DNA from: Escherichia coli
GTDB lineage: Bacteria > Pseudomonadota > Gammaproteobacteria > Enterobacterales > Enterobacteriaceae
Assembly: GCF_030013595.1 (NCBI RefSeq)
Contig: NZ_CP122768.1
DNA: 64,000 nucleotides
Reading direction: 5' to 3' (one strand)
Below the pieces are notes generated by a model, which ran no database searches, was not told the DNA's origin, and saw only the letters and a program-made list of their open reading frames with translations. Below, in pieces: positions 420 to 17,320 of this stretch. A program made the translations under genes and the position numbers. How positions within the stretch are numbered: position 1 is the stretch's first letter; each line of letters opens with the position of its first letter.

Positions 420-503
420 TGATTCATCTTCATTGGCCTCGAATGCTTAGATTGTCTAAGTATCTGCCATTGTTGTATACTTAGCAATCCTAAGTTAATA
501 GCC

Positions 504-1076: not shown

Positions 1077-1110
1077 ATTTTAGCAAGTATTTGAAGCTAA
1101 ATGGAGTCAT

Positions 1111-1145
1111 GAAAAAGAGAGGGCAAAGCCGAACTCCGCCCTCTC
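1111..1145 (-). terminator. Candidate rho-independent terminator for minus-strand transcripts
   Basis: 8-bp stem GAGAGGGC/GCCCTCTC (1117-1124 / 1138-1145) with a 13-nt loop; on the minus strand it is followed by a U5 run (A-run 1112-1116 on plus). Loop is long, so weak. Confidence 0.3.
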
Positions 1146-1891: not shown

Positions 1892-4219
1892 TTATTCTGT
1901 TATATTTCTTGGCAACATAGAAAAAGATGCTTGAGACAATCCTGCGCGCTTGAATTTATACCGTATATATGTTGACACTTCCATCTCATGGTTTGACAAC
2001 AAAATCTGACGATCTGAAAGCTCTACCCGTAACAAATCACTCAATGAAGCAATGTTAATCTCATCCATTGACTGTACTGGATCATCAATCAGTATAAATG
2101 GATTAAGCGCATATACCCTATTCAATGTTAGGAAAAATGCCAAACCTAATGATGCGATTTGCCCACTACTCATAGACAGGATTGCATCATGATCAGACTT
2201 CAGCGCAGTATTGAATTTGAGTATATCTCCTTTACCGCTCACTATAAACAAACCTAACCCACGCTGATAATTCTGTATGAGTCTTCCACTATATATATGG
2301 AATAACAGCTCTATATCACCAATAGTCTTTTTCGCATACTGTTTCGCAGTGTCGTCCAATTGCCGCCTAAGATTAACAATTTTTGCTTTTATTTTTTTGC
2401 CAGCTTCAATCCTAGAACTGAGCTTATCAAGCTCCGCTACTTTGGACTTGTACTCTTCGCTTTTGAATTTAGAATGAGCGGCTCTGAGATAGGATTCTTT
2501 ATTTTCAAAATCTGAAACACTAAGTGAGGTTATATCTGATGCGTTCAAGAAAGCCATCTCTAAGCTAGATGACCAGTCTAAAGGGAGCACATCCTTTTCT
2601 GGTTTTTTAGCTGTAGCAATAATCCCTTTTGCTTCATTAAACCGTAACAGCAGAGCTGCATCATCAGCCGTAAAACTAAGATCTTTTGATACGCCATAAT
2701 TTACCAACTGCAAAGCCACTTCACTTATGATTGAGAACTTAGATTCTGCTGCTGTGAGAGCCTTAAAAAGCACACTATCGAAATCTTTTGCAACTAGGTC
2801 ACGCTGCTGTGTGAATGCTGTTATCTGTAAATTTAGTAAGTCCTGTATTGACCTTACTGTCTCCTCCAACTTCTGGGCAGAAGCATCTATTTCAGATCGA
2901 ATTCTTTCCGCATTATTTACAGCGGCTTCCTCTAACGCAGCGTAAGTCGCCCATGATAACCCACAGAATGGACAACCGGAAATTTCCAAATCTTCACATT
3001 CTTGGTGTCGCCGCAGCAACTCTGCATGAGCATTTAGTAAATTTACAAGCTTTGCGTTCTTAGCTGCACTATCAGATTTAATTAGATCCCGTGCCTCAAT
3101 GAGACTATTTACACCAACCAAATCAGCAGCGTTCTTAAGACCGTTTAGGTCTACTTCATTTATCTCTGAAGCTGGCTTTCTGAATATCAAAAGATCATGA
3201 TCCAGCCCAACTAGCGTTGACTCCTTTACTTTCAGACCTTCATATCCAGCTACTTCAGAACCCAACTGAAGAGCCAACTTTATATCGACCTCTCTTTTTA
3301 AAAACGCATCAATATTACTATTAGCCTTTCTCGTCAGAACTTCATCAAAGTTCTGATATATTCTAAATATATTCCGTAATTCACGTATCAGAGTTTCAAT
3401 ATCTGTATCATTTACAGCCGATAGAGGCTGTTCAACATCCCAACCAGGTGACGGCGTCGCGGTACTTAACCGCTTGAAGTCAACGGAATTCTCGGCATCT
3501 TGAAACTGACCACTAAGCTGTTTAATTTTTTCATTCAACTCAGCCTGGAGGTCAGTATGCACTTTCCCCGTATAAGATTCCGTAATAATACTTTCTAACT
3601 CGGAGCAATATGATATCTGTCTCGTCAATTTATCGGTATTAATAAGATGCTCAATGCCTTTTTTTCTTTCAGTGGCATCCGTCGAGTACAGGTATCTATT
3701 CTGCCCTTGCTCAAGATAGTTCAATAAAGAGAAATTTTTTAAGAAGTTCTCTCCTAGAATACTCTCTAGTGCTTTAGAATCAAGACTCTCTCCAAACTTA
3801 TCGGAGTCTATACTGCTTATTTCGTAAAGCTTAAAAATAGAGAAGTTATCAGGTGCATTATTATCCGGGTTCGATAAATCCGCTATGGTAGCAACACGAG
3901 CTAGGAAAATTGACTCTCCTGAATCTTGATTTATGAGCTCAGCTCTAATAGCGATGTCGCCCTCTTTATTTCTATTCCAGTATATGTTTTCTTCAAATTG
4001 TTTTTTGCGCGAACGTTTTGCAACTGTTGCATCATTTGTATTGATAATTCTTTGTATAACGCCAGTAAACAAAAGCTCCAACGCATCAAATATGCTAGTT
4101 TTTCCAAAACCATTGGGGCCATCCAAGGTAATCATGGAGGCAGATCGAAAATCAATAGATGTATTTTCAAATGGCTTGAAATTTTCAATCTTGAGGCTGG
4201 ATATTTTCCATTTCTTCAT
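1892..4219 (-). CDS. SMC/Rad50-like ABC ATPase with coiled-coil and CxxC zinc-hook; candidate Lamassu LmuB-like (ABC-3C ATPase) component
   Basis: 775 aa. Walker A GPNGFGKTS (res 34-42), ABC signature MSSGQ, Walker B ILIDDP, H-loop LSNHE near the C-terminus; long central region with CPFC (res 416-419, nt 2963-2974) at about the midpoint. Start overlaps upstream gene stop by 35 nt. Confidence 0.85.
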   Translation of the reverse strand: MKKWKISSLKIENFKPFENTSIDFRSASMITLDGPNGFGKTSIFDALELLFTGVIQRIINTNDATVAKRSRKKQFEENIYWNRNKEGDIAIRAELINQDSGESIFLARVATIADLSNPDNNAPDNFSIFKLYEISSIDSDKFGESLDSKALESILGENFLKNFSLLNYLEQGQNRYLYSTDATERKKGIEHLINTDKLTRQISYCSELESIITESYTGKVHTDLQAELNEKIKQLSGQFQDAENSVDFKRLSTATPSPGWDVEQPLSAVNDTDIETLIRELRNIFRIYQNFDEVLTRKANSNIDAFLKREVDIKLALQLGSEVAGYEGLKVKESTLVGLDHDLLIFRKPASEINEVDLNGLKNAADLVGVNSLIEARDLIKSDSAAKNAKLVNLLNAHAELLRRHQECEDLEISGCPFCGLSWATYAALEEAAVNNAERIRSEIDASAQKLEETVRSIQDLLNLQITAFTQQRDLVAKDFDSVLFKALTAAESKFSIISEVALQLVNYGVSKDLSFTADDAALLLRFNEAKGIIATAKKPEKDVLPLDWSSSLEMAFLNASDITSLSVSDFENKESYLRAAHSKFKSEEYKSKVAELDKLSSRIEAGKKIKAKIVNLRRQLDDTAKQYAKKTIGDIELLFHIYSGRLIQNYQRGLGLFIVSGKGDILKFNTALKSDHDAILSMSSGQIASLGLAFFLTLNRVYALNPFILIDDPVQSMDEINIASLSDLLRVELSDRQILLSNHEMEVSTYIRYKFKRAGLSQASFSMLPRNITE

Positions 4220-4940
4220 GAATCAGAGTCTCGATTAGTTTGTCTGCTTCAATCCCAGATGCAGAAGCATTAAAGATTTTGAGATGAAGACCGGTCAATT
4301 TTTTCTCGGCGAGTGCTTCCTTTACATAAATATCAAGCGGCTTTAGTGAGCTTTCCTTAACAGGAACCTTTACAAATGGAAGCTTTATAAAAATTCTCGC
4401 CGCGACGCTATATAATGTAGGCGATAGTGGTTGATCTCGATATTCTGCAAACATCCTATCATCGACAACAATCGCTGAAACGCTTTCGAAGTTGTGCCCT
4501 TCTAACAACCTAAGCTCTTCCTCGCTGTAATAAAGAAAATATTTTTTAAAATAATATGGATTCTCTTCAATTCCAAACACCTTACTCTCAATTCCATTAA
4601 AATCAACTCGGTGCCTTAATTTATGCAAAATAATCAGATCGGTATTTTTATCGAAAGCAGGATCAGATTTGAATGTTTCAGGAGCATACAGTAACACTAA
4701 TTTATTCAGCACCTGCGGTGATGGTATATTTTCACACTCAACCACAGCGAGGAATCGCTTCCTATCTCCACTATCCTGACTAAAATAAGTCAAAGACTTA
4801 TAATCAACACCTTCAAGACCAGCTAAAGTTTCTCCTGCCGAATACTCTATGGTGACGTCATCTGCTTTAGAATAGTCGCCTGTATTAAACAAAGTAAACT
4901 CATGTTTCAAGGCAGCCTGTAGAACAATATCTTTAATCAT
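4185..4940 (-). CDS. Middle component (251 aa) of the three-gene ATPase operon; candidate LmuC/kleisin-like protein
   Basis: ORF track; overlaps the upstream gene by 8 nt and the downstream gene by 35 nt (translational coupling); AT-rich; no motif recognised by eye. Confidence 0.75.
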   Translation of the reverse strand: MIKDIVLQAALKHEFTLFNTGDYSKADDVTIEYSAGETLAGLEGVDYKSLTYFSQDSGDRKRFLAVVECENIPSPQVLNKLVLLYAPETFKSDPAFDKNTDLIILHKLRHRVDFNGIESKVFGIEENPYYFKKYFLYYSEEELRLLEGHNFESVSAIVVDDRMFAEYRDQPLSPTLYSVAARIFIKLPFVKVPVKESSLKPLDIYVKEALAEKKLTGLHLKIFNASASGIEADKLIETLIHEEMENIQPQD

Positions 4941-6195
4941 TCAACTTCACCCTCGCCTCTTCCTTTGAAATTATTTTTGCATCAAAGGCTTTAGTTATTT
5001 TGTTACGATCCTTACCCATCAATGAAAACTCATCTTCTACAGCATCCCGCGAAGCTCCGGTAGCTGCACAAAATCGCTCAGCGGGTGAAAAAATATTTGC
5101 TCTAGCTGCGATTAGCCATTGATATTCAACTAAGATATCTATCAGCTCTGGATCGCTTTTCAGCTGCTCTATTAGATCTTCAGCAAACCTATGCTCCCGT
5201 CGAGCATTGTCTGCCGAAATTGCTGTTGGCAAATAAAAATCTCCGGCAGAGCACCTATAGTAAGGAGGCTTTTGCTCACTCAGTGGCGCTTTATCTATAT
5301 CGTAGATCACATCCACATAATCATAAACACTGTTCTCACTCACGACCATTGTGGAAGATCCAAAACATAACGACTTCCACAACCATATAAATGGAGTATC
5401 ACCCAACTCTTTAATCTGATCGTAAACATTTGCAACTTTTTGAATAACAGTTCTATCTGCTGTTTTTTCCATTGTATTGGTATACCCATACAATGATTTA
5501 CAAACGGCCATCCTGGCTTGGAACATTTTGTATACAATGTCGTCTTCATGGGTAGCGGTGAGGCTTAATAACTCTACAATCTTCTCACTTTTTAAAGTTT
5601 GAGTAAACGCGGCTTGTGCGGCGCTCATTAACCCATCCTGATTGCACGCGTGTATATATATTACTTGAGCGGCAATATGACTCTGCAAAGCCTCGAACTT
5701 CAAATTCACTAAAAAATCACTGCAAGGTAACTCTTCGGAAACCAGGTACTTCTCAATTTTTGATTTCGTTTTTTCTTCAACATCTTGGAGATAGCAGTAA
5801 GGCAGTCCATCGTAAGTATAAAATTTAACGACATTCCCATTGCTGCCAACAAAATCAGAAGCATCATCAAGGCGCGCAGATGTATGAAAATATCTTTTGG
5901 TAGTCTTATCACACAACATATATGTAGATGCAGCTTTTTCGAGAGCCTCCCTATAGGCAGCTCTTTTATCATCTGCTAGCGCTTTTACCTGATGCGTAGA
6001 AACTGCAACTCCATTTTCAATTATCGAAAAATCATCAATGCTGTCGATTTGCAACTCAAACGACATTTTATTGAGCACACATTCTATGGAATGATAAAGC
6101 GCTAAATGCCCTTGATAAATAAACCCACTCCATGTAGGTGCAGCTGTATGAGGATGGGAGGAAGCCGATTTCGACATGCAATATGTCCTAGGCAA
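4933..6195 (-). CDS. Putative effector (420 aa) of the three-gene operon; candidate LmuA-like protein with possible N-terminal PD-(D/E)xK-type nuclease fold
   Basis: First gene of the minus-strand operon. N-terminal segment GFIYQGHLALYH...IDSIDDFSIIENGVAVSTHQVK contains a D...D...(E/Q)xK-like arrangement; assignment is by eye only. Alternative start at M7 (position 6177). Confidence 0.75.
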   Translation of the reverse strand: MPRTYCMSKSASSHPHTAAPTWSGFIYQGHLALYHSIECVLNKMSFELQIDSIDDFSIIENGVAVSTHQVKALADDKRAAYREALEKAASTYMLCDKTTKRYFHTSARLDDASDFVGSNGNVVKFYTYDGLPYCYLQDVEEKTKSKIEKYLVSEELPCSDFLVNLKFEALQSHIAAQVIYIHACNQDGLMSAAQAAFTQTLKSEKIVELLSLTATHEDDIVYKMFQARMAVCKSLYGYTNTMEKTADRTVIQKVANVYDQIKELGDTPFIWLWKSLCFGSSTMVVSENSVYDYVDVIYDIDKAPLSEQKPPYYRCSAGDFYLPTAISADNARREHRFAEDLIEQLKSDPELIDILVEYQWLIAARANIFSPAERFCAATGASRDAVEDEFSLMGKDRNKITKAFDAKIISKEEARVKLND

Positions 6196-6524
6196 ATTTA
6201 GAGACAGAGTCAGAAGTAACCTTCTAACTCAGTAGAATATGATCTTAATTTCTGTATCCGATGTTTATATTTTTTGTTGAACGCGCCCAGCGGCGTTATG
6301 AAAACTTCCTTGATTGTCATTTTTATGCATTCTCTTGATCGATAGGAATTTAAATCCCAAAAAGATTAAAAAAACACCCAAAAACGGATGTTTATTCGAC
6401 ACTGCCTGCGTGCCATGAGTGCACCGCCATCAATTAAATGGATCTTATCGAGTGATACTGTATATCACTGATGGTTTTTTACTCCATTCCCCTGAAAATG
6501 GACGCAACTTCCCCGATGCGGCTC

Positions 6525-7712
6525 TCAGCCGCACACCCGCTGTTGCGCCAGTGGCTCATGCATCAGGACCAGCTCTGTCAGACGGTAGCCCCGCTTCAGC
6601 CCCGTAAAACGCATCTGACATCCGCACAGGATGCACTTTAGCGGGTCAACCTTCAGTAACCGCTGATACATCCCTCTCCACCTGATTTGCATCGCCGTCT
6701 TTCTCACCGTCTCCGTTATGACGTACACAACATCTTCCAGTAACCGGCGCTTTACCGGACTCAGGAAACCGTAGTACCTCACCATACGGAACCCCTTATC
6801 CGCCACATGCCAGGAGAACCTTTCCATAAACTCATCACCACTCATCACCAGGTATTCTTCCCGTTTTGTCCGGTGACTGTTGTAACGCAGACCAATTTCA
6901 TCCTGACCAGCATAGTGCTCCAGACGGCTCATCGGCACCGGCGGTTTTTTCAGGTAAGAGCCGAAGTACACCGCCACATGTGTGGCGTTATCCATCACCC
7001 GGGATACGTTGACATTCCAGCCCCGCCGGTAATGACTGTCCAGGAAGCGATTCCAGTCCCGTCTGCTGCTTCCTTCAACTGCCAGCGCATCCGGTATCAC
7101 CAGCTCCGGGTATTTTCGTGACAGTAACCACGTTATCCTGTAACGCCACATGCTCATCACCTTACGGGCGTAAAAATGAAGGTTTTTCCAGGTGTGGTCT
7201 GGTGTCACGCCGCCGGCCGTTGTCGACAGGTGAATGTGCGGATGCCACTGCTGGTCACGTCCCCATGTGTGGATGACCGTGAATATCCCCGGCACCACAT
7301 CTGCCTGGCGGCAGATTTCCTGTATCACATCCGCAGCAATGCGGCTCATCTCTGCCAGTAACCACCGGTTGTGGAACACCAGGGACCAGTACTGGCAGGG
7401 AAGTGTGAACACAATATGCTGCCACGGACAGTCGGGAACCAGACTCAGCAGATACTGTATCCACTGTGCGCCAGCCTTCACTCCGCAGTGCGGGCAGGAG
7501 CGACTTTTACACCGGAAGCAGACCTTTTTTGTGTGGCAACAGTCCGGAGATGAACAGCACCACTGTGTGTACCCCATCAGCGTGGTTCCGCACGCCATGA
7601 TTTTTGTCACCGACTCAATGACTACCGGACGCACTGAACCTTCCGGTTGTTTCTCCAGCCAGTTAAGCCAGCGGTTTCCCTGCTGAAAAATGTCGGCAAA
7701 ACGGGGAAGCAT
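6525..7712 (-). CDS. tnpA: IS91-family transposase TnpA
   Basis: N-terminal Cys-rich zinc-binding region (CCSSPDCCH...CFRCKSRSCPHCG), HUH motif HPHIH, conserved Tyr-containing C-terminal region. Likely start at MLPRF (7712), sharing one nucleotide with the orf121 stop; ORF track extends to 7757. Confidence 0.85.
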   Translation of the reverse strand: MLPRFADIFQQGNRWLNWLEKQPEGSVRPVVIESVTKIMACGTTLMGYTQWCCSSPDCCHTKKVCFRCKSRSCPHCGVKAGAQWIQYLLSLVPDCPWQHIVFTLPCQYWSLVFHNRWLLAEMSRIAADVIQEICRQADVVPGIFTVIHTWGRDQQWHPHIHLSTTAGGVTPDHTWKNLHFYARKVMSMWRYRITWLLSRKYPELVIPDALAVEGSSRRDWNRFLDSHYRRGWNVNVSRVMDNATHVAVYFGSYLKKPPVPMSRLEHYAGQDEIGLRYNSHRTKREEYLVMSGDEFMERFSWHVADKGFRMVRYYGFLSPVKRRLLEDVVYVITETVRKTAMQIRWRGMYQRLLKVDPLKCILCGCQMRFTGLKRGYRLTELVLMHEPLAQQRVCG

Positions 7713-8077
7713 CAGAAGGGCGGGGGGACTCCGTCCGGCCAGTGAACCGTGCCACACTCCGGGCAGTACATGCCGCCGGCGCTGATACCGGCAAGAATGG
7801 TCGCAAACTCCCGCTCCGTGCAGCGGGCTATTTCAGGATACCCTTCGTCATCGACACGAACAAACCAGAAGACCAGCTTTTTGTTTCCGGCATCCACAAA
7901 GAAGGGAATATTCAGGTCTGCGCAGCACTCAACGGCATCGTCAAAATTATCAAAGCGCAGAGCTTCTGCGTCTTCTTCGTCAAAGAAGTCATCGTCGTGA
8001 AGCTTCACGACATAGCGGGGAAGTTTGCTTCTTTGAGGGGCAGGTTTTCGTTTACGGGGTTTAGCTGAACGGGACAT
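7712..8077 (-). CDS. IS91 accessory ORF (ORF121-like, 121 aa)
   Basis: 121-aa ORF immediately upstream of and overlapping tnpA, as in IS91. Confidence 0.65.
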   Translation of the reverse strand: MSRSAKPRKRKPAPQRSKLPRYVVKLHDDDFFDEEDAEALRFDNFDDAVECCADLNIPFFVDAGNKKLVFWFVRVDDEGYPEIARCTEREFATILAGISAGGMYCPECGTVHWPDGVPPPF

Positions 8078-8964
8078 ATAACTACCTGAAAGACAATGAT
8101 ATTGTCTGTTTTTATAACGGTAATTTCAGGCCATGACAAGCCGCAGCCGCCAAGCTGCCTACTCGAGCGATATCGCTATGATATCACCGAATGTAACATA
8201 CCTGTAGGGTCAAAAAAAGGGTCAGCCAAACATTCTGGAGTGTTCGGTATCGTTGGTACCATTCATGCAAAATGGACTTAAATCTTAAGAAAGACACTCC
8301 ATTAGCTTAAGCTTCCCTACCTTACCCTACCAATACACCTAGCCAGCCGTGAGAACGCTACCGCCATCAGAGGCATTAGTCCCGATTAAGTATCGATGCA
8401 ACCAAATGTTACCAAAATTCATGAATTGTTCAAGAAGGCAATCAGATAATCCCTAAAGCTTTATGGGCCTGGTTATGCGATTACATTGGGAAATGGTTCA
8501 TGAACAGAAGTAGAGCAAGCTGCCAAGAAATGCTCATAAGAGGCGAATTTCCTGTTAGTTCATGAAGCCACCTGGAAGTGAATTCATCTTTCTATTAAAA
8601 ATATTCATTTAAAGCAAAGAGATATGTCATCTGTGGTTTATGAACTGGATTCTCGCTCAACATAAGTTAAATGTGGTGGGTTTGTTCTTAAGTTCATGTG
8701 TTCCGCTCTTTCAGTAGCTTAACTGATGAATCAGTCAGCAGCTCTTGCCGTGCAAGCTACGCGGCGGTTCGTACCAGATTGGCCACCTCCATCTCCTGGT
8801 TCGCTTTCCCCTCCCCCCGGTAAACCTCACCCAACGTTAATTAATGATGTCAGTATGTGGGCGCTATCCTTGTATGTAAAATCCACTGACGATTATGCCC
8901 ATCTGTGAAAAAAACTCACAATGCCATTCGATGCATCTCCATACTGAACGAGGCGTTATCGTCT

Positions 8965-9864
8965 TTATCGCCCCGTAGTGGATATCAGAAAATCAATCAG
9001 GGCCTTCACTCTTTTCGTTTTACCCGCGTTTTTGGGGTAATAGAGATACACTGGCGGGTAGGTTTTCCAGTAGCTCTCCATCACCGGAATAAAGCGCTCC
9101 CTGTCCGGCTGTAACTGCCAGACAGGCTCAAACAAGCGCCCAATTCCCAGCCCGTTACGGATCCCGTCTGCCATAACGTCAATATCGTTGCTGATTAACT
9201 GCCCCGGCATCTCAACGGTCAACTGCTCACCGCGATCGTTCAGGAGCAGCGGAAGGATGCGGTTGTTGGTGATAAAACGGTAACCAATCAGCTGGTGATG
9301 ACAGAGATCTGCCGGCACTTCAGGCGTTCCATGTCGGGAGAGATACGCTGAGGATGCATATAATCCTTCACGAAACGGTTTCATTAACGGTCGGGCCACC
9401 ACCCCTCCCTCAAGAATATCGCCAAAACGGATCCCCAGATCAAAACGCTCTTTGATGATATTCACGGTACCGTCGTAGACCGAAATTTCTAACTGTATAC
9501 CCGGATATTGCTGACAGAATTCTGCCATCGCAGGCTTAAGAATTAACAGGTAGGCAAAACGCGAGAGCGTAATTCGCACCATCCCAGAGGGCTCCTGATG
9601 CTGGTCGCGAATGCTTTCAAGCGAGTTTTCCAGCGACTCCACCGCCGCAGCGGTCTGTTCCAGCAATAATTGACCGGTTTCCGTCAGCTCTATACGGCGG
9701 GTCGTACGCACAAAAAGCGGATGGCCGATATACTCTTCCAGCAGCTTTAGTGCATTGCTGACGGAGGGAGGCGTAATTTCCAGTTTCCTTGCGGCTGCCG
9801 AAATATTGCCCTCCCGCGCAATGCTCTGGAAGATGCGAATCTGGTTATAAAGAGCGTTATTCAT
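8965..9864 (-). CDS. LysR-family transcriptional regulator
   Basis: 299 aa; N-terminal HTH (ISAAARKLEITPPSVSNALKLLEE) and LysR substrate-binding domain; divergent from the downstream oxidoreductase operon. Confidence 0.9.
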   Translation of the reverse strand: MNNALYNQIRIFQSIAREGNISAAARKLEITPPSVSNALKLLEEYIGHPLFVRTTRRIELTETGQLLLEQTAAAVESLENSLESIRDQHQEPSGMVRITLSRFAYLLILKPAMAEFCQQYPGIQLEISVYDGTVNIIKERFDLGIRFGDILEGGVVARPLMKPFREGLYASSAYLSRHGTPEVPADLCHHQLIGYRFITNNRILPLLLNDRGEQLTVEMPGQLISNDIDVMADGIRNGLGIGRLFEPVWQLQPDRERFIPVMESYWKTYPPVYLYYPKNAGKTKRVKALIDFLISTTGR

Positions 9865-10000
9865 AATGTTTTCCTAAAGCAATTCTCGCCTGATTATTAA
9901 GTACAGTCTAAAAATGCTTAAGTCAATGACCCTCTAATCTTCCTGAAATACGCCTCTTATACTTTAGTCTCTTTCTACTACGACCTGAGTTCAGGAGACT

Positions 10001-10312
10001 ATGATGCGAATTTTATGTCTGGATATCCCTGCCCCTGGAGCATCGCTGGAGAAATATGCTCCGCACCTCAACGCTGAAGCGCTGCACGCCTGGGGATTGT
10101 ATAAATCAGGCTTCATCCGCGACATCTACTTCCGTCAGGACAGACCTGGCGTCGCTATTTTTCTTGAATGTGACTCTGTCGATGAAGCGATGAACGTTAT
10201 GGCCGAATTCCCGTTGGCAAAAGCAGGCTTACTAAGCTTCGAGTGTATACCGCTTGGCTCCTTTATTAACTGGGAAAATCTCTTCGCCGATGAATTTAAA
10301 AATAAAGAGTGA
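10001..10312 (+). CDS. Small alpha+beta-barrel protein (YciI/muconolactone isomerase/Dabb-like), 103 aa
   Basis: ORF track; size and operon position; product assignment is tentative. Stop overlaps the next gene start (ATGA-type). Confidence 0.55.
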   Translation: MMRILCLDIPAPGASLEKYAPHLNAEALHAWGLYKSGFIRDIYFRQDRPGVAIFLECDSVDEAMNVMAEFPLAKAGLLSFECIPLGSFINWENLFADEFKNKE

Positions 10313-11010
10313 GGACCGATATGAAACCTGCATATAAACCAGTGCTATGTGTCGTTTCCAGCCATCCGATTAAAGGCGCATCCGGTGTACCAACCGGTTT
10401 TTTCCTGGCCGAGCTGACTCATCCGCTGAAAGTACTGGAAGATGCCGGAATAAAAACAACAATAGCCAGTATTCGCGGGGGGCAGCCACCGGTGGATGGA
10501 TTTGACCTCAGCGACCCTGTTAACGCCTGGTACTGGAACGAAACCGATTTTCAGCAGCGCCTGGCAACAACACCTGCGTTATCCGAGCTGAAAGGTGCCG
10601 ATTACAGCGCAGTTTTCTTTGCAGGTGGTCATGGGACCATGTGGGATTTCCGTGATAATCAGGATGCCCAGCGTATTATCCGCGAAGTGTATGAAAGTGA
10701 TGGGATTGTCTCAGCCGTCTGCCACGGGCCTGCGGCATTGGTTGACGCAAAACTCAGTAGCGGCGAATACCTGATAAAAGGGAAAAATGTGGCGGCCTTT
10801 ACCAACAAGGAAGAGGAAGAAGTTCACACAACAGATGTGGTTCCCTTCCTGCTTGAAACCGCACTTCGCGAGCATGGTGCGCTTTATCATGAAGCTCCAA
10901 ACTGGTCTGAAAACGTGGTTACCGACGATCGCCTTATCACGGGGCAGAATCCCGCTTCAGCACATGGGGTTGGTGTGGCGCTGTTAAATGCACTCCGCCG
11001 GACAGCTTAA
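10309..11010 (+). CDS. DJ-1/PfpI (ThiJ) family type-1 glutamine amidotransferase-like protein
   Basis: 233 aa; nucleophile-elbow-like AVCHGPAAL motif typical of DJ-1/PfpI proteins. Confidence 0.75.
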   Translation: MRTDMKPAYKPVLCVVSSHPIKGASGVPTGFFLAELTHPLKVLEDAGIKTTIASIRGGQPPVDGFDLSDPVNAWYWNETDFQQRLATTPALSELKGADYSAVFFAGGHGTMWDFRDNQDAQRIIREVYESDGIVSAVCHGPAALVDAKLSSGEYLIKGKNVAAFTNKEEEEVHTTDVVPFLLETALREHGALYHEAPNWSENVVTDDRLITGQNPASAHGVGVALLNALRRTA

Positions 11011-11083
11011 TTAATTCATCGTTACTCACCTTACTTGGCCGGTTTAAGTCAGCCACGATCCGGCCTTTTTTCAGGAGCTGAAT

Positions 11084-12031
11084 ATGAAAACACTACCTCC
11101 AGTCGCACTAGGTACATGGTCCTGGAGCACAGGCTTTGCCGGCGGCGACACCGTCTTTGGTAATCATCTTTCTGATACTCAGATGGCAGAAGTGTTCACT
11201 GCGGCCATGAGTAAGGGCCTCAATCTCTGGGATACCGCAGCAGTATATGGTATGGGGAGTTCCGAGACTGTGCTGGGAGCATTAGTCCGTCAGTTTCCCC
11301 GCGAGAACATAATTTTATCCACCAAATTCACGCCGCAGATTGCGGACAAGCAGTCTGCGCAGCCTGTCAGCGATATGCTTGAGGCCAGCCTTGGGCGCCT
11401 GGGCGTGGACGCGATTGATATCTACTGGATCCATAATCCCCTCGACGTCGAAAAATGGACGCCAGGACTGATCCCACTTTTACAAAGCGGTAAGGTAAAA
11501 CGCGTAGGTGTTTCCAACCACAATCTGGCACAAATCAGACGCGCCAATGAAATCCTTAACGCTTCCGGTTATTCCCTCAGTGCAGTACAAAATCACTACA
11601 GCCTGCTCTATCGCGCTTCTGAAGAGGCCGGGATCCTTGATTATTGCCGACAAAATAACATCACGTTCTTTGCTTACATGGTCCTGGAGCAAGGCGCGCT
11701 CAGTGGTCGTTATGATTCAAATCATCCCATGCCTGCCGGGAGTGGCCGGGCCGAAAGTTATAACGCCGTACTGCCGCAGATAGAAAGACTAACCGCCGCC
11801 ATGAAAAAAATGGGAGCCGAAAGGAATGCCAGCGTGGCACAGATAGCCATCGCATGGGCTATTGCGAAAGGTACCCTTCCCCTCGTTGGTGCGACTAAAG
11901 TCCATCACGTTCTGGACGCCGCCTGCGCTTCAGACATCCAGTTACGCGATGAGGAAATCATCCTGCTGGAACAACTCGCCGCAGAGACCAGAGTGGATAC
12001 ACGAGGCGCCTGGGAAAAACCGATGGTGTAA
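11084..12031 (+). CDS. Aldo/keto reductase family oxidoreductase
   Basis: 315 aa; AKR-like sequence (LWDTAAVYGMGSSE..., ...GVSNHNLAQI...). Confidence 0.85.
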   Translation: MKTLPPVALGTWSWSTGFAGGDTVFGNHLSDTQMAEVFTAAMSKGLNLWDTAAVYGMGSSETVLGALVRQFPRENIILSTKFTPQIADKQSAQPVSDMLEASLGRLGVDAIDIYWIHNPLDVEKWTPGLIPLLQSGKVKRVGVSNHNLAQIRRANEILNASGYSLSAVQNHYSLLYRASEEAGILDYCRQNNITFFAYMVLEQGALSGRYDSNHPMPAGSGRAESYNAVLPQIERLTAAMKKMGAERNASVAQIAIAWAIAKGTLPLVGATKVHHVLDAACASDIQLRDEEIILLEQLAAETRVDTRGAWEKPMV

Positions 12032-12133
12032 AGCCCGTCCGGAACAGACTGTCATGAATGACACACACGAACGGGCTGTTCCGGGTGATTCTAATCTGTA
12101 TCACTTTTACTGCTTTGTATGAATGGTGAGAAT

Positions 12134-12812
12134 ATGAAAATCATTTGCCTCGAAGAAAATTATCTCGACAGCGAGTTAGGGCGAGCGTGTATGCCTGTTG
12201 CGCTTGAGCAGGCACCTTTCCTTGGCGACTGGGGGAAAACCGTCGCTGATGGTCATAATCCTGACCGACTCCCTGCTTTCCCGCTTTAATAAACTGAATG
12301 TGCCACTCTATCTTCATCCCGGGTTACCGCTTAAAAGCGTACAGCAGGCCTACTTCACGGGCTTCAGCGCAGAGGTCAACGCCAGGCTTTCTATGTTTGC
12401 CTGGGGCTGGCATCACGAAGCGGGGATCCATTTGTTGCGGCTGATGTTATCGGGTGCATTTGATAAATATCCCCACTTGCAGGTAATCAGTGGCCACTGG
12501 GGGGAGATGTTACCCTTCTGGCTCCAGCGTCTTGATGACAGCCTACCACTGGCTGCAACGGGTCTGTCACGCACGCTAACGAGAACCTTCCAGCAACACG
12601 TTTACGTTACCCCGTCAGGTATGCTGACACTGCCGCACTTCAAGTTTATCTACGCGTTAATGGGGGCTGAAAGGATCCTGTTCTCCGTCGATTATCCCTA
12701 TCAGACCCCTGGACGGTGTAAAAACCTTTATAGACAGTCTGCCCGTCAACAAGGCTGAAAAAGAGGCCATCGCGTTTCGCAATGCAGAACGTTTACTGGG
12801 CATCACGGTTTA
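12134..12812 (+). pseudogene. Disrupted amidohydrolase-2 family gene (frameshifted/truncated)
   Basis: Three consecutive frames carry pieces: MKIICLEENY... (12134-), the 186-aa ORF 12198-12758 (…ISGHWGEMLPFWLQRLDD…FSVDYPYQ…) and a C-terminal tail …KEAIAFRNAERLLGITV ending ~12812. No single intact ORF. Confidence 0.55.
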
Positions 12813-12963
12813 GTTCACCGTTTCATGATGACTGAGCACATTGTGATCAGCCGACAATTATTAGTTTTTGCCTAAAAGTGAATGAGCCTTTACTGCTCTA
12901 AAAAAATAATGTTGTCACTCTATACTGGATTTAATATTCACCAAAGATGTTTAACTGATTGAA

Positions 12964-13536
12964 ATGAAAAATATCCTTGTTATTTCAGGTCATCCTGAGC
13001 TTACCCATTCCGTCGCCAATGCCACTATTCTTGATGAAGTGGAGACCGCCCTTCCCGATGTTGAGATTCGTCGTCTGGACAGGCTCTATCCGGATGGCAA
13101 ATTCAACATCGCGGCGGAGCAGAAAAGCCTGCTCAGGGCCGATGTGATTGTCTGGCAGTTCCCTTTTTCCTGGTATGGGCTGCCAGGATTAATGAAAAAA
13201 TGGCTGGACGAGGTCTTTGTTCACGGCTTCGCGCATGGCTCAACGGCGAAACTGGGCGGTAAAAAGCTGATCCTCTCCTTTACAACGGGAGCGCCAGAGG
13301 AGCTCTATACCGTCGACAGTTTCTTTGGCCATACCATTGAAGAGTATCTTATTCCGTTCGAAACCACGGCAAGGCTGTGCAATCTTGAGCTGCTGGCGCC
13401 GGTTTATACCTGCGGTATCAGCTATGCCGACCGGGATGCCGACAAAATCGCGCAGCAAAAAACGCTTGCCCGGGAACACGCTTCAAGGCTTGTCGAACTG
13501 CTCAATTCCGTCGTGAATAATCCAGAGGGAGAATAA
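12964..13536 (+). CDS. Flavodoxin-like NAD(P)H dehydrogenase (quinone) family protein
   Basis: 190 aa; MKNILVISGHPE... N-terminus and size typical of NAD(P)H:quinone oxidoreductase / KefF-like proteins. Confidence 0.75.
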   Translation: MKNILVISGHPELTHSVANATILDEVETALPDVEIRRLDRLYPDGKFNIAAEQKSLLRADVIVWQFPFSWYGLPGLMKKWLDEVFVHGFAHGSTAKLGGKKLILSFTTGAPEELYTVDSFFGHTIEEYLIPFETTARLCNLELLAPVYTCGISYADRDADKIAQQKTLAREHASRLVELLNSVVNNPEGE

Positions 13537-13538
13537 CA

Positions 13539-14558
13539 ATGCAGTATACCCGGCTCGGTAAAAGTGACTTACTTGTTTCCCGCATCTGCATGGGATGCAT
13601 GGGGTTTGGCGATCCGTCGACGGGTCAGCATAGCTGGACGCTGGACGAAACAGCAAGCCGCGACATCATTCGCTATGGCCTTGAAAAGGGCATCAACTTT
13701 TACGATACCGCTATAGCCTACCAGAATGGCTCCAGTGAGCGATACGTTGGCCGGGCATTACGGGAGATGGCGAAACGCGATGATATCGTCCTGGCCACCA
13801 AGTTTCTGCCGCGAACCCCCGCACAAATTGCCGGAGGGATCAGCGGAAAAGAGGCAATCGCTCAATCCCTTGACCAGAGCCTGAAGAATCTGGGGATGGA
13901 CTATATCGACCTCTACATCTACCACATCTGGGATTACAACACGCCCATTATCGACGTGCTTGAAGCGTTACATACCGCTGTTACTGCTGGCAAAGTACGA
14001 GCTGTTGGTATTTCAAACTGCTATGCCTGGCAGCTGGCGAAGGCGAACGCCCTTGCTGAACGCGAAGGGCTGACGCCCTTTGTTTCCGTACAGAGCCACT
14101 ACAATCTAATTATGCGCGAAGATGAACGGGAGCTCTTCGGCCTGTGCACTGAGGATAATATCGCAATGACCCCCTATAGCGCGCTGGCCAGCGGCCGCCT
14201 CTCTCGTAAAGAAGGCTATACACGGCGAGCCACAGAGGATGACTATGCGCGTGGAAAATATGACAGCACGGCTGAACAGGATCGCAACATTATTGAGCGT
14301 GTAGCCGAACTGGCCGAACGTCATCTGGTGTCAATGACGGAAATATCTCTCGCTTGGCTGCTGACAAAAGTCACATCACCTGTCGTAGGGGCTACAAAAA
14401 AAGCTCATGTCGATGGCGCGGTAAACGCAGTAAATCTTCAACTAAGTCCGGAGGAAATTCAGTTTCTGGAAGAAACCTACCAGCCGCATGTTCTGACGGG
14501 GATCATGGCGCAAAATACGCCGCAAACGAAAGATGTTAAGCAGGTCTGGATGCGATAG
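13539..14558 (+). CDS. Aldo/keto reductase family oxidoreductase (Tas/YajO-like)
   Basis: 339 aa; AKR hallmarks (…INFYDTAIAYQNGSSE…, …GISNCYAWQ…). Confidence 0.85.
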   Translation: MQYTRLGKSDLLVSRICMGCMGFGDPSTGQHSWTLDETASRDIIRYGLEKGINFYDTAIAYQNGSSERYVGRALREMAKRDDIVLATKFLPRTPAQIAGGISGKEAIAQSLDQSLKNLGMDYIDLYIYHIWDYNTPIIDVLEALHTAVTAGKVRAVGISNCYAWQLAKANALAEREGLTPFVSVQSHYNLIMREDERELFGLCTEDNIAMTPYSALASGRLSRKEGYTRRATEDDYARGKYDSTAEQDRNIIERVAELAERHLVSMTEISLAWLLTKVTSPVVGATKKAHVDGAVNAVNLQLSPEEIQFLEETYQPHVLTGIMAQNTPQTKDVKQVWMR

Positions 14559-14673
14559 CCCTTATTCACTTTTCCTCCTCTCGTCTTTGAGAGCGCCAGT
14601 AGCGGTCGGTTACGTTCTTACCAGCACCAGTTGATCGAACGTCTTAAACAGTAATGTCAGTAAAAAGATCATC

Positions 14674-15399
14674 GTGAAAAAGACTTTTATGCTTTTAATT
14701 TGCATGCTAATAAGCAGCCCTGTCTTTGCAACAAAACCGGACGCGCCGAATAAGCCGGAGATGAATATCTTCGAGCTCGGCATCAGACCCGATCGGGACA
14801 ACGACTTTGCAGACGTGGCCAGACAGACGATTTCCGCTTCGGTTGATCATGAAGCTGGTACACTGGCGATGTATGCCCTGAAACGCAGCGACAATTCAGG
14901 TCAGGCATTCATGTTCGAACTCTATGAAAATGAGCGTGCTTATCGCAAACATCTCAATGCCGCCCCATACAAAGCATTCGCTGCTCGTGCACCTGACATT
15001 ATTGACAGGAAGAAGAAAATTACCCTGGAGCCACAGTTTCTGGGCGACAAACACATCATACCGAATGAACGAACTATCAATAATCTGGTGATCGTCGAAG
15101 TAAAGCCTGAATTTCAGAGCGAATTTAGAAACATCGTCCTTCCTGAAATGGTCGAGTCGCTCAAAGTAGAGAAAGGCGTGTTAGCCATGTATGCCGGTAC
15201 AGATTCAGAGACTCCAAAACGATGGTATTTCTATGAGATTTACGCCAGTGAGGAGGATTATCAACTGCACCGACAAACGCTGCACTTCCTGGATTACCTC
15301 AGGCAAACGGCGCATATGAGCGCCAGGAAGGACGCAATCCCGGTAAAACCGGTATTTCTTCGTAACAAAGGCGGAATCAAACAGGAGCCGCAACGTTGA
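14674..15399 (+). CDS. Secreted tandem ABM (antibiotic-biosynthesis-monooxygenase-like) domain protein
   Basis: 241 aa; N-terminal signal-peptide-like MKKTFMLLICMLISSPVFA; two repeats of similar length, each with an ...AMYAL/AMYAG...YE.Y...Y..H pattern. Confidence 0.65.
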   Translation: MKKTFMLLICMLISSPVFATKPDAPNKPEMNIFELGIRPDRDNDFADVARQTISASVDHEAGTLAMYALKRSDNSGQAFMFELYENERAYRKHLNAAPYKAFAARAPDIIDRKKKITLEPQFLGDKHIIPNERTINNLVIVEVKPEFQSEFRNIVLPEMVESLKVEKGVLAMYAGTDSETPKRWYFYEIYASEEDYQLHRQTLHFLDYLRQTAHMSARKDAIPVKPVFLRNKGGIKQEPQR

Positions 15400-15414
15400 C
15401 CAGTAAGGATTAAC

Positions 15415-16218
15415 ATGAAAAGCGTACTTGCAGCAGCGGCTATGTCGCTTGTTATTTCTGATTTTGCCAATGCTGAGGAAACAAGAGGTAAAGCTATGAT
15501 GAAAATAGAACCGTCAGCGATTTCGGAAGCTGATATTCGTTCCGTCTCACCGGCTCTCGCGCGCTTTGGTCGCGAAGCTATTACTGAAGATCTGTGGACA
15601 CGCGACGCCCTCTCACCGAGGGATCGTAGTGTGGTGACCGTCGCCATGCTGATTGCCCGCAACCAGCCTGCCGAGCTTAAGCACTATATTGACGTCGCTC
15701 TCGATAGCGGCGTGACGCCAGCGGAATTATCAGAAATCATTACCCATCTGGCGTTCTACTCAGGTTGGCCAAATGCAATGTCAGCCGTCAGCGTGACCAA
15801 AGCAGTATTTGAAACTCGTGGCGTCACGGCAGATGCACTTCCTGAAGCTTCTCCGGACCTGCTTCCTCTCAATCAGGAAGCAGAAAAGCAGCGTTCAGAG
15901 ACAGTGGAAAAAAATGTTGGCCCAATATCTCCAGGCCTGGTTAAATTCACTGCTGATCCACTCTTCCTGGATCTCTGGCAAAGACCCGCGCTGAAACCCC
16001 GCGACAGAAGCCTGATTACGGTCAGCGCCTTAATCGCATCCGGACAGAGCGCGCAGATTGGCTATCACCTCAATAGAGCAATGGATAATGGACTTTCTGT
16101 TGAGGAAGCTGGTGAGATCGTTACCCAGGCCGCCTTCTATGCTGGCTGGCCAAACGCATTTACCGCTGCTCCGGTTGTGGGAGAGGTGCTAAACAATCGA
16201 TCATCGAGTAAAAGGTAA
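15415..16218 (+). CDS. Tandem carboxymuconolactone-decarboxylase (CMD) family protein, possibly exported
   Basis: 267 aa; two repeats each with ...LW.R.ALSPRDRS..TVA.LIA... and ...HL.RA.D.G...E..E...H.AFY.GWPNA... motifs; hydrophobic N-terminus. Confidence 0.7.
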   Translation: MKSVLAAAAMSLVISDFANAEETRGKAMMKIEPSAISEADIRSVSPALARFGREAITEDLWTRDALSPRDRSVVTVAMLIARNQPAELKHYIDVALDSGVTPAELSEIITHLAFYSGWPNAMSAVSVTKAVFETRGVTADALPEASPDLLPLNQEAEKQRSETVEKNVGPISPGLVKFTADPLFLDLWQRPALKPRDRSLITVSALIASGQSAQIGYHLNRAMDNGLSVEEAGEIVTQAAFYAGWPNAFTAAPVVGEVLNNRSSSKR

Positions 16219-16632
16219 CATTACTGAACACTAAAACCTGACGCACATCACAAAATTAGAACGATCAGTTCATGAACCAACAGACGTGACATCGAGTGAT
16301 TTATGGACAGCGTTTAACACAGTTATGAACCAAAACTGAGTTCATAACTGTGAGTTTGAATCGTCATTTGATTAATATCCATTTAAAACAGTTTGTTATG
16401 CTGTTTCTGGTGCTGAAGTCAATTATGTATATCCCTCAAACCCAGAATAGTTAAATGGAATTTGAGTGATGCGAAGCGATTTTACGGTCGTCGTTATTAC
16501 TTCAGGGTTCCAGAACATAAAGCCTCTCCTCTTTCATGATTGGCCTGTGCATACCGGATATAGGCTGGCTGGTATGCAGGTTTGCCGTTTGCCGCATCTT
16601 CCCTGCGTTGAAGAGTCAGGCTGGCAAACCGC

Positions 16633-16887
16633 GTGCAAATGAACACCCCCTCTTTCCATCAACACTTCAGACAGCTTGCGGGAATGAGTCCACTCCGGTA
16701 TCAGAAATGGCTACGCCTCAATGAAGCCAGGCGACTGATGCTGAATGAACATTACGATGTCACCACTGCAGCCTATGCTGTCGGTTACGAAAGCTTATCC
16801 CATTTCAGTCGGGAATATTCGCGGATGTTTGGAGAGTCACCTAAGAGAGATATTGCCAGGTTAAGAAAGTCTGTCGGTCAGCTTTAA
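16633..16887 (+). pseudogene. yneL: AraC-family regulator remnant (C-terminal HTH only), yneL-like
   Basis: 84-aa ORF carrying only an AraC C-terminal HTH (…FHQHFRQLAGMSPLRYQKWLRLNEARRLML…LSHFSREYSRMFGESP…); no N-terminal domain upstream. Matches the position of the K-12 yneL remnant next to the yde fimbrial genes. Confidence 0.6.
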
Positions 16888-17320
16888 TAAACCCTGCACT
16901 TATCTGTTTAAAGCAATTCCGTGTTAGTTACACCAGGCAAACATTAACTATGGCTAATGATTTATAGCCATATAAACCATTGGTCGCTCTTGACCTTTCC
17001 TGACACTTCCCTTGTTCGCAATAATATTCTGTTTAGTCGCTGTTTATAAATAACATGCATAATGAAATCGTAATGTTATTTAGCGACATAAAATGTCTTT
17101 GCAAATACTCTCTACAACAAGTGCTGCAATAAACTTGTTGTGATTAGGTGTCCTTGTAATTTAAAGATATTATCGTTCTTCGTGAAATGTAATAACCCTG
17201 GAAACTATATTCTCAGGGCAATATCCCATCAAGAATGATTCTTGTTTTATAAGCAATAACAGAATGACTTAATTGTTAACTTTCTTTATTCAGCTACTTA
17301 AATATAAATTTTGGAGAATT

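Follow-up and report, generated by a model that had tools for sequence, protein, structure and literature searches.

GInts, described in 2017 (PMC5385486), are site-specifically inserted islands. At their 5' end lies a four-gene operon whose products are two tyrosine recombinases, a third protein of large size and a small, helical one; variable cargo comes next, then a short AT-rich 3' end with conserved stretches, and imperfect direct repeats of 10–17 nt lie on the flanks. GInts excise as circles in a process that needs all four genes, and the reference GinA-D proteins are from Pseudomonas. They are reported from 7.5% of the replicons of Escherichia (PMC10214605). The insertion targets published for GInts lie within or beside protein genes (such as an ABC transporter gene, ssb or nrdA), with dif unmentioned, and their authors did not find a common feature in the 3' ends (PMC5385486). 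SEs (strand-biased circularising integrative elements) and GMT (Gamma-Mobile-Trio) islands also have multi-recombinase modules at the left end and defence genes among their cargo; imperfect inverted motifs (C/C') that follow a 6-bp spacer logic mark their termini, and their target sites are few. The GMT preprint makes no mention of dif. IMEXs (CTXphi, TLCphi, CUS/Ypf-type filamentous phages and the gonococcal genetic island) use dif as their integration site, where they line up in tandem and restore a working dif; they lack recombinases and use a dif-like attP with XerC and XerD arms. The dif site is the single site that a circular chromosome cannot do without, and to our knowledge the only elements previously known to land there were ones that borrow XerC/D.

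Here we analysed a window of 64,000 nt from Escherichia coli, in which a sequence-only reading had noted palindromes on both sides of a LysR gene cluster (coordinates are those of the window, on the plus strand unless stated; palindromes and the inverted repeat are given without strand). The window lies in the E. coli terminus adjoining dif, in the order hipA-dif-...-yneL. The comparison with strains lacking the cluster, which that reading had proposed, revealed two tandem inserts: island A, ending at 8672, and a LysR module at 8673–16456. In 3,437 of 5,426 E. coli genomes the site is empty, with dif contiguous with CATGTCTGAGTG and all of the motifs absent, and both the strain comparisons and the family-B alignment place the breakpoints exactly after GTTAAAT. 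The last bases of each insert, ...(A/T)AGTTAAAT, copy the outer XerD arm of dif; at the right boundary AGTTAAAT stands alone, in direct orientation relative to dif, and the chromosomal flank beyond it, on the yneL/AraC-remnant side (16457–16700), is joined straight to dif in empty-site strains. Immediately to the left of island A, dif is perfect in three related loci (L002, L003 and L005); in a fourth (L001) a perfect dif adjoins the left side of the LysR module. The direct repeats pair TTATGTTAAAT of dif with ATAAGTTAAAT in family A (9 of 11 positions) and with AATAGTTAAAT in family B (7 of 11).

The right-hand part of island A fills positions 1–8672 and is 99.8–99.9% identical to the islands after hipA-dif in L002 and L003; the window does not reach its four-gene recombinase module or dif, both of which are upstream. 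The cargo comprises an Xre/antitoxin pair, ABC-three-component defence genes and an IS91-family insertion (6345–8161). In strain LR-48 the last base of the island is the equivalent of 8672, and the yneL flank follows directly. Its conserved AT-rich 3' end (attR side; 8288–8672, about 330–385 nt) is 72–79% identical to 3' ends with unrelated cargo (retron Ec78, TIR, type I R-M, Gabija-like), and the GC content of this end and of its LysR-module equivalent (16209–16456) is 0.40–0.44, against about 0.51 in the adjacent LysR-module cargo. Counting back from the island end, the region holds a distal palindrome, AATTCATGAATT, at −255 (8416–8427; partly conserved in relatives), the perfect palindrome GTTCATGAAC at −177 (8496–8505), a GTTCATGAAG unit at −114 (8558–8567), the AT-rich block AATATTCATTTAAAGCA (8600–8616; counterpart AATATCCATTTAAAACA at 16374–16390 in the LysR module), a core-proximal inverted unit, (G)TTTATGAAC, on the minus strand (8636–8645), which reads ATGAAC, then 20 nt, then GTTAAAT, and the terminal sequence AACATAAGTTAAAT (8659–8672), invariant in family A and the breakpoint in strains LR-48 and WP9-S17. 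Among eight family-A right ends with different cargo, GTTCAT.AA at −114 is invariant and the best-conserved distal site; the TGAA of YATGAAC at −34 is likewise invariant in all eight (L039 reads GTGAAG), as is AACATAAG.TAAAT, and one comparison showed YATGAA at −34 in all family-A ends. The position equivalent to the 8496–8505 palindrome is occupied in three of the eight and is not universal. The unit at 8636–8645 mirrors TTCATR at +21 of left ends. The closing GTTAAAT (8666–8672) matches the final 7 nt of dif exactly and is probably the crossover region.

The LysR module (8673–16456) is a 7.8-kb insert that has family-B ends and no recombinase genes. Pfam assigns its cargo to a LysR regulator (8965–9864, minus strand), a DJ-1/PfpI protein, two aldo-keto reductases, a flavodoxin-like reductase, an ABM monooxygenase and a CMD-family protein. 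The module is missing from the empty site and from LR-48, and adjoins a perfect dif in WP9-S17. Its first 66 nt (8673–8738) are the left-end remnant of a family-B element, with 89–91% identity to the 65 nt that directly follow dif, or a preceding island, in L005, L025 and L027, whose left ends run on into recombinase genes; in the module this end is truncated after 66 nt, inside an IHF-like box, with a TTCATG half-site at +21 (8693–8698). The conserved 3' end (attR side; 16209–16456, about 250 nt) begins at the stop codon of the CMD gene, and its right 210–250 nt are 70–74% identical to the family-B ends of L004, preceded by Hachiman/restriction cargo, and L005, a small recombinase-only element. 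It closes with AAACCCAGAATAGTTAAAT (16438–16456), the last bases of which are the dif-derived GTTAAAT; these 19 nt are invariant in three of three family-B ends, and the flanks diverge immediately beyond them. A Providencia element terminates in AACCCAGAATAGTTAAAT. The LysR module is a recombinase-less derivative of a family related to that of island A, and the 'LysR cluster' of the window should be recorded as an integrative module without recombinases and not treated as core chromosome.

The palindrome GTTCATGAAC is exact at 8496–8505 and at 16268–16277 (−189 from the end of the LysR module), just where the sequence-only reading had placed it. These are the only two copies in 64 kb (0.08 expected), and none of 100 shuffled windows held two or more. 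The close variants that had been listed at 8558–8567 (GTTCATGAAG) and 8636–8645 (GTTTATGAAC) each carry one mismatch; for the one at 8692–8700 the sequence is present, but it amounts to a half-site, AGTTCATGT. At one mismatch the count across the window is five against 2.2 expected, unremarkable alone, and the significance of the motifs comes from their clustering and their conservation in related sequences. All ten exact copies of GTTCATGAAC in 652 kb of DNA compared lie 167–190 nt before the right end of an element; at the 16268 palindrome TCATGAAC is invariant across the family-B alignment, and the Providencia element has a counterpart, GGTTCATGAACC, at −167. The inverted repeat proposed at 16320–16350 is perfect and has arms of 13 rather than 11 nt, CACAGTTATGAAC-N9-GTTCATAACTGTG (16318–16352; arms 16318–16330 and 16340–16352, 9-nt spacer), a 13-9-13 layout that resembles those of loxP and FRT. 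Its inner arms are invariant in three of three family-B ends.

In an unbiased hexamer test, GTTCAT/ATGAAC is the most over-represented hexamer in nine right ends with differing cargo (30 occurrences against 1.8 expected, z = 21) and occurs in all nine. Of 24 left ends from about 10 genera, 21 have TTCAT(G/A) starting at exactly +21 from the junction, behind 20-nt spacers that are otherwise dissimilar. Many of these ends are relatives of each other, so that the counts do not stand for independent events. The few right ends from outside E. coli come from Providencia, Citrobacter and E. whittamii. Extra copies of the unit lie 90–255 nt inside right ends, as palindromes or as the 13-9-13 inverted repeat, and an IHF-like site (WATCAR-N4-TTR) is found at +47/48 in 10 of 19 left ends. 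The core-proximal right position of family B has TTATGTAT instead of YATGAAC, offset by 1 nt.

In autonomous members, dif is directly followed by a module of four genes: two encode tyrosine recombinases, one a protein of ~800 aa and one a helical protein of ~145 aa. We saw this module outside the window, in the relatives L002, L003 and L005, and at least 15 loci have open reading frames of ~460, ~520, 790–860 and 145–170 aa in fixed order, starting ~80–300 nt past dif in most loci and ~0.7–2.5 kb past it in three Vibrio/Photobacterium loci. Pfam Phage_integrase matches genes 1 and 2 of the module only. TGFR..E, HxPRH and Y residues are invariant in the third protein, the profile of which had no match among solved structures; the fourth is predicted to be all-helical (pLDDT 82), and a fold search with it returned no match. 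The recombinases of families A and B are homologous (33–36% identity). A host-type dif in the same orientation lies directly upstream in 19 of 25 loci found via the second recombinase, and the dif-adjacent loci belong to Enterobacter, Citrobacter, Klebsiella, Pectobacterium, Psychrobacter, Vibrio, Photobacterium, Shewanella, Providencia and Serratia.

We consider it probable that the window holds two tandem islands at the outer edge of the dif XerD arm, with the palindromes being copies of a (G)TTCAT(G/A)A unit and its complement, a unit that forms part of the ends of this island family. Judged from sequence, the motifs are most likely binding sites for the islands' recombination proteins. Of the options offered by the sequence-only reading, insert-end remnants or recombination sites are supported and operator sites are not. 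Operators of a regulator of the LysR cluster (the LysR protein, the neighbouring AraC-type remnant or a cargo regulator) would fit short perfect palindromes, which are typical of dimeric helix-turn-helix operators, in non-coding DNA flanking the cluster on both sides. However, the motifs are conserved at island ends that have no LysR cluster (retron, Hachiman, TIR, R-M), and the left set is present without the cluster in LR-48 and missing in WP9-S17, where the cluster adjoins dif. The motifs at 8416–8698 and 16268–16352 also lie outside the divergent promoter region between the LysR regulator and the operon (9865–10000), where LysR-type operators would be expected, and a search for promoter-like sites next to them found none; operators are very unlikely. 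The same strain comparison bears on the idea that the motifs bracket one 7.3-kb element as the terminal inverted repeats of a transposon-like element. Similar sequences do flank the cluster, in both orientations since they are palindromic, but the left set (8416–8645) is the 3' end of a separate upstream island and travels with island A independently of the cluster, which leaves the half-site at 8693–8698 and the right-hand set as the only motifs of the LysR module itself. Positions 8673–16456 encode no transposase, and there is no target-site duplication beyond the shared dif-derived GTTAAAT; we give this picture, which the strain comparison contradicts, almost no weight. Chance similarity in AT-rich intergenic DNA could account for a one-mismatch count about twice the expectation, but scarcely for the exact copies, the top-ranked hexamer, the fixed positions and the invariance across diverged ends, and is extremely improbable.

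A different reading takes the modules to be Xer-dependent, as IMEXs or dif modules, with ends that are XerC/D substrates and palindromes that are cer/psi-like accessory sequences. Both inserts end in a copy of the end of the XerD arm (with the 9/11 match in family A), the LysR module encodes no recombinase, filamentous prophages, which are true IMEXs, occupy the same dif in L001, and arms of ~200–350 nt are reminiscent of the 180-nt arms of cer/psi. Against this, a search for dif-like 28-mers allowing three mismatches found no second full dif in the window, the ends in the family-A and family-B alignments have a partial XerD arm only, with no XerC arm or central region, and autonomous members carry their own four-gene recombinase module right at the junction. 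The motif is also unlike any XerC/D, ArgR or ArcA site known to us, and we regard Xer dependence as quite improbable. Alternatively, the repeats could work as DNA or RNA structures and not as protein-binding sequence, forming a terminator, or a hairpin while an intermediate of transfer or replication is single-stranded. In single-stranded DNA the 13-9-13 repeat can form a hairpin (−13.1 kcal/mol, z = −5.9), and strand-biased circularisation has been reported for the related SE elements (PMC10214605). The 10-nt palindromes, however, do not fold, the core-proximal units are single-copy and 46 nt apart, and the changes in the outer arms of the L004 counterpart are uncompensated while the inner sequence is kept. 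No terminator-like site or Rfam match was found, and a structural role seems very doubtful.

A unit 20 nt inside GTTAAAT at family-A right ends and another 21 nt inside the left junction together predict a dyad at the circular junction, which would read YATGAAC-N20-GTTAAAT-N19/20-(G)TTCATR and be centred on TTAA; given the TTATGTAT variant and its 1-nt offset in family B, this model is strictly valid for family A only. The units would be bound by island-encoded recombination proteins, helped by the IHF-like site at +48 of the left end, and would assemble a synaptic complex for integration at dif and for excision. Crossover inside GTTAAA(T) would then regenerate dif at the left junction. The islands may recognise the site with dif-bound XerD as the landmark. 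The LysR module would be decayed, or else able to move only when mobilised in cis or trans. By analogy only, lambda-type attP likewise flanks a short crossover region with repeated short units at fixed distances, one arm holding distal copies and the other an IHF-consensus site; the island ends differ in using one hexamer both proximally and distally, and three recombinase-like proteins are available.

Like GInts, the dif islands have a ginABCD-like 5' operon (in relatives), an AT-rich conserved 3' end and imperfect flanking direct repeats, a likeness of organisation; they differ in that their 3' ends show a specific repeated unit at fixed spacing. They resemble SEs in their recombinase modules, defence cargo, terminal motifs and small number of target sites, but we did not assign them to the SEs/GMT islands because the gene order differs (intA-tfp-intB-srap against int-int-large-small) and NCBIfam GmtY scores 22 bits against a cut-off of 340. 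They are not IMEXs either: autonomous members have their own recombinases, and only the outer 7–9 nt of the XerD arm are common to dif and the island ends. The dif (pdif) modules of Acinetobacter plasmids are bounded by two complete inverted XerC/XerD site pairs, an arrangement not found here. On sequence alone, the LysR module can be likened to the CIMEs of the Streptococcus ICESt1/CIME accretion model, which comes from another element class, in having att-type ends without recombination genes and lying in tandem with an autonomous relative at the same target. The literature that we searched contained neither dif targeting by such islands nor the TTCATR end motif. We tentatively suggest that these islands form an undescribed, widespread GInt-like lineage that uses dif as attB, inserts at the edge of the XerD arm, rebuilds dif, builds tandem arrays, has a TTCATR-dyad att and carries passenger modules. 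This suggestion covers arrays at the terminus, with cargo for defence and for metabolism, in Enterobacterales, Vibrionales, Alteromonadales and Moraxellaceae, att sites of the form YATGAAC-N20-GTTAAAT-N20-TTCATR plus distal palindromes, and recombinase-less passengers such as the LysR cluster that persist and are mobilisable in cis or trans.

The dif site is the landing pad of an island family common to many Gammaproteobacteria, and the palindromes of the window are probably conserved end-motifs of two such islands and putative recombinase-binding sites. If this is true, the same 7 nt are the target of a family that has multi-recombinase machinery of its own, leaves dif intact and accumulates in arrays. 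Such a family would explain the variability of the E. coli terminus next to hipA, where a contiguous empty junction was not obtained in about one-third of complete E. coli genomes, the build-up of defence systems there (ABC-3C, retron Ec78, Hachiman and TIR) and the presence of metabolic modules at the terminus, such as the LysR cluster. The TTCATR units would be the first candidate recognition elements for GInt-type 3' ends, and would offer a simple signature with which to delimit such islands in genomes.

The palindrome GTTCATGAAC has two exact copies in the 64-kb window, at 8496–8505 and 16268–16277, as the sequence-only reading had described. With 0.08 exact copies expected by chance and two copies in 0 of 100 shuffles, the feature is real and non-random. 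The close variants reported at 8558 and 8636 are present, each with one mismatch, and an extra palindrome, AATTCATGAATT, lies at 8416–8427. The proposed variant at 8692–8700 proved to be a half-site only, with a TTCATG unit at 8693–8698 and no full palindrome. The inverted repeat near 16320 is indeed perfect, with 13-nt arms (16318–16330 and 16340–16352) around a 9-nt spacer (13-9-13), slightly longer than had been claimed. Neither promoters nor terminators associated with the motifs were found when the surroundings of both clusters were scanned, and an Rfam scan of 8000–17000 gave no match.

The window consists of E. coli replication-terminus DNA, which in annotated relatives is ordered hipB, hipA, dif, a variable segment, yneL (an AraC remnant) and fimbrial/yde genes. 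Because it begins inside an island downstream of dif, the window contains no dif at ≤3 mismatches. Searching 5426 complete E. coli genomes with a synthetic junction of dif and the yneL-side flank found it uninterrupted in 3437, several at 100% identity, and this empty site, with dif joined straight to the flank, carries none of the motifs. In strain LR-48, the island after dif ends in ...CTCAACATAAGTTAAAT (window 8672) and is followed directly by the yneL flank, the LysR cluster being absent; in WP9-S17, a perfect dif is followed at once by GTGGTGGGTTTG... (window 8673 onward), giving the LysR cluster without that island. These arrangements mean that the window holds two tandem inserts: the end of a defence-cargo island (island A, to 8672) and, independent of it, the LysR module (8673–16456). 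The right boundary of the module, ...AAACCCAGAATAGTTAAAT, was set by three diverged homologues whose flanks differ right after GTTAAAT, and island A and the LysR module each terminate by repeating the final 7 nt of dif (GGTGCGCATAATGTATATTATGTTAAAT). The left-hand palindromes (8416–8645) fall within the final 260 nt of island A and the right-hand ones within the final 190 nt of the LysR module. Comparison with strains lacking the cluster thus located the boundaries and overturned the view that the motifs bracket one LysR cluster, since the left set belongs to the end of island A and the right set to the end of the module. The suggestion of insertion ends or recombination sites was right in kind: the motifs sit at island ends and are missing from the empty site.

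The six bases right after dif or attR vary by lineage (CATGTC, CATGTT or TGGATT, and GGAATT in the window, at 16457–16462; also LR-48 13847–13852 and comparison loci L006 14292–14297 and L034 384–389), and the bases beyond them (TGAGTGATGCGAAG) are conserved. The variable bases could have been left by repeated rounds of insertion and excision in which the overlap was 6 nt. At the WP9-S17 locus (NZ_AP022287, 1–6010 of the fetched sequence), a filamentous prophage (Zot-like, DUF2523, pIV secretin) and the LysR module flank a perfect dif on opposite sides; the site is therefore shared by GInt-like modules and a true Xer-dependent element. More tandem arrays occur in E. coli and Citrobacter (L004, NZ_CM129877, 15001–15400 and 26400–26665; L036, 700–800; L025, 6400–6540), where the right end abuts the next island's left end, with three added bases (AAT) between them in L036.

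The final 232 nt of the LysR module, which represents one of two related island families (family B), were used as the query in a sensitive search and matched 62 E. coli records at 60–80% identity. Two were inspected: in L004 the end follows Hachiman and restriction genes, with the next island's integrase beyond, and in L005 it closes a small element with recombinase genes only. Aligned with the module's own end, these share as invariant the palindrome (TCATGAAC), the inner inverted-repeat arms (CACAGTTATGAAC and AGTTCATAA) and the final 19 nt. Queried likewise, the end of island A (family A) matched 273 records, including 65 plasmid places. Among eight family-A ends compared, with ABC-3C, retron Ec78, TIR, type I R-M, toxin–antitoxin and plasmid-remnant cargo, GTTCAT.AA at −114 (counted back from the right end), TGAA of YATGAAC at −34 and AACATAAG.TAAAT are invariant, and the palindrome at −177 is perfect in three. 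When hexamers were counted without bias in nine right ends, GTTCAT/ATGAAC came top (30 seen versus 1.8 expected, in 9/9), followed by TTCATG/CATGAA and TCATGA. Every one of the 10 exact copies of GTTCATGAAC in the 652 kb of fetched DNA, including one in Providencia, is located 167–190 nt inward of the right end of an element. The window's own two right ends align weakly when compared directly, their kinship being clear only via intermediate relatives; few right ends were captured from other genera, where the elements mostly exceed the 10-kb flank.

ColV-type plasmids hold a 117-nt family-A right-end fragment ending CAACATAAGTTAAAT (L008, plasmid NZ_CP041920, 571–730), joined directly to left-end-like sequence with TTCATGAA at +21; the join is either a captured circular junction or what remains of a right-end/left-end junction. 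A conserved segment with YCATGAAC-N20-GTTCATAG is common to islands in Citrobacter, Klebsiella and Pectobacterium (L010 ~15790, L011 ~11300, L012 ~17490) and may represent a further type of site in this island family.

Spacing at the ends is fixed. TTCAT(G/A) begins exactly 21 nt past the junction in 21 of 24 left ends, including that of the LysR module (8693), with GTACAT in Shewanella and TTCACG in one Pectobacterium as variants, and the 20 nt in between differ among sub-families. Family-A right ends have ATGAAC, exactly 20 nt and then GTTAAAT. From this left and right spacing, a circular junction would read YATGAAC-N20-GTTAAAT-N19/20-(G)TTCATR, predicted as ...AACATAAGTTAAAT followed by AACCTCC... 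in a strain with an intact module such as LR-48, and would form an inverted pair with its axis through the TTAA of GTTAAAT. The symmetry is strict in family A only, because family B has TTATGTAT at the core-proximal right position, shifted by one nucleotide. The IHF consensus WATCAR-N4-TTR is found at +47/48 in 10 of 19 left ends. In the right arm, the distal copies hold comparable places in families A and B: the palindrome at −177 and −189, the forward unit at −114 and −116, and an AT-rich block, AATATYCATTTAAARCA, at −73 and −83, respectively.

The first 65 nt of the LysR module are ~90% identical to family-B left ends from E. coli, Citrobacter and Enterobacter cloacae, and its last 210–250 nt are 70–74% identical to family-B right ends. 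No recombinase genes were found in the module, and beyond +66, a point within the IHF-like box, it is no longer homologous to family-B left ends. The most fitting interpretation of the module is a family-B element that has lost its recombination genes, perhaps comparable by analogy to a cis-mobilisable element. Of 5426 genomes, ~545 have the module's conserved 3' end and 423 the near-complete module region. In UMNK88 (14643–14977 of the fetched locus) only the last 335 nt remain, comprising the C-terminal end of the CMD gene and the 3' end, after another island; this remnant shows deletion from the left within arrays. Within island A, 6345–8161 is a ~1.8-kb GC-rich (0.55) insertion relative to the otherwise 99.9% identical islands of L002 and LR-48. 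It encodes an IS91-family Y2 transposase (ORF 6525–7757, minus strand; Pfam Y2_Tnp and Zn_Tnp_IS91), and the flanking alignments overlap by 11 bp.

Autonomous members begin ~80–300 nt after dif in most loci (0.7–2.5 kb in three Vibrio/Photobacterium loci) and open with four genes encoding proteins of ~460, 520, 790–860 and 145–170 aa. The first and second are tyrosine recombinases (Pfam); the third and fourth matched no family in Pfam or NCBIfam. An alignment of third proteins (~790–860 aa) has invariant TGFR..E, HxPRH, GR and Y residues, which look like a complete tyrosine-recombinase catalytic set; a profile of 13 of these proteins gave only noise against PDB sequences. According to published descriptions, GinC/Tfp lack the RHRY motif. 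The AlphaFold model of the fourth protein is all-helical (pLDDT 82), and because a Foldseek search of the PDB gave no match, the idea of a recognisable HTH palindrome-binder is unsupported. Second and third proteins are 36% and 33% identical between families A and B. Scanning one genome per species with the second-protein alignment identified 25 loci from Enterobacter, Citrobacter, Klebsiella, Pectobacterium, E. whittamii, Xenorhabdus, Serratia, Providencia, Psychrobacter, Vibrio, Photobacterium and Shewanella. Nineteen of the 25 modules have, at their left end, a dif in the same orientation whose XerC arm is typical of the taxon (most of the other six have too short an upstream sequence to judge), and XerD-side dif targeting is therefore a property of the lineage. 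L002 (347–480) and LR-48 (2543–2680) combine one cargo and right end, 99.8–99.9% identical to the window, with two different left ends and recombinase modules; left end AGCCTACGATGG... also occurs in E. whittamii and AACCTCCATGGG... in Enterobacter. Such sharing implies modular exchange between island families.

These data bear on what else the motifs might be. That they serve as operators for LysR or AraC proteins, as the sequence-only reading had allowed, is very improbable: the motifs are conserved in islands with unrelated cargo, their left set occurs independently, and promoters are lacking nearby. Structural hairpins are just as doubtful, given that the short palindromes do not fold and that the long repeat in L004 has uncompensated changes in its outer arm. 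It is also quite unlikely that the inserts are Xer-dependent modules, as their ends lack the XerC arm and central region, and the inverted repeats of a single transposon, excluded by the strain comparison, deserve almost no credence.

We instead attribute the palindromes to the way in which the ends of two dif-targeting GInt-like islands, standing in tandem, are built. The likeness to GInts is one of organisation: a 5' four-gene operon, then cargo and a 3' end rich in AT, the whole flanked by imperfect repeats. A survey reports GInts in 7.5% of Escherichia replicons (PMC10214605), and the authors who described them state that the 3' ends showed no common feature (PMC5385486). The islands do not belong with the SE/GMT elements, given their different gene order and a GmtY score far under the cut-off; nor are they IMEXs, because they encode their own recombinases and have no full dif-like attP. 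In the open-access literature we found neither a link of GInts or any self-encoded multi-recombinase island to dif nor a description of a defence hotspot at hipA/dif, an absence that is weak evidence.

By analogy with lambda-type and Xer accessory architectures and with the GInt model of 6–7-nt staggered cuts (PMC5385486), the TTCATR units are most likely binding sites for the islands' recombination proteins. Crossover would take place within GTTAAA(T), with protomers set in place around it by the core-proximal TTCATR pair. An accessory arm would be made up of the distal palindromes together with the 13-9-13 repeat, and the left arm would be bent by IHF. dif would be restored at attL because the exchanged segment is presumably identical in both partners. 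The TTCATR motif opens up a testable model for the way these islands recognise dif as well as their own ends.
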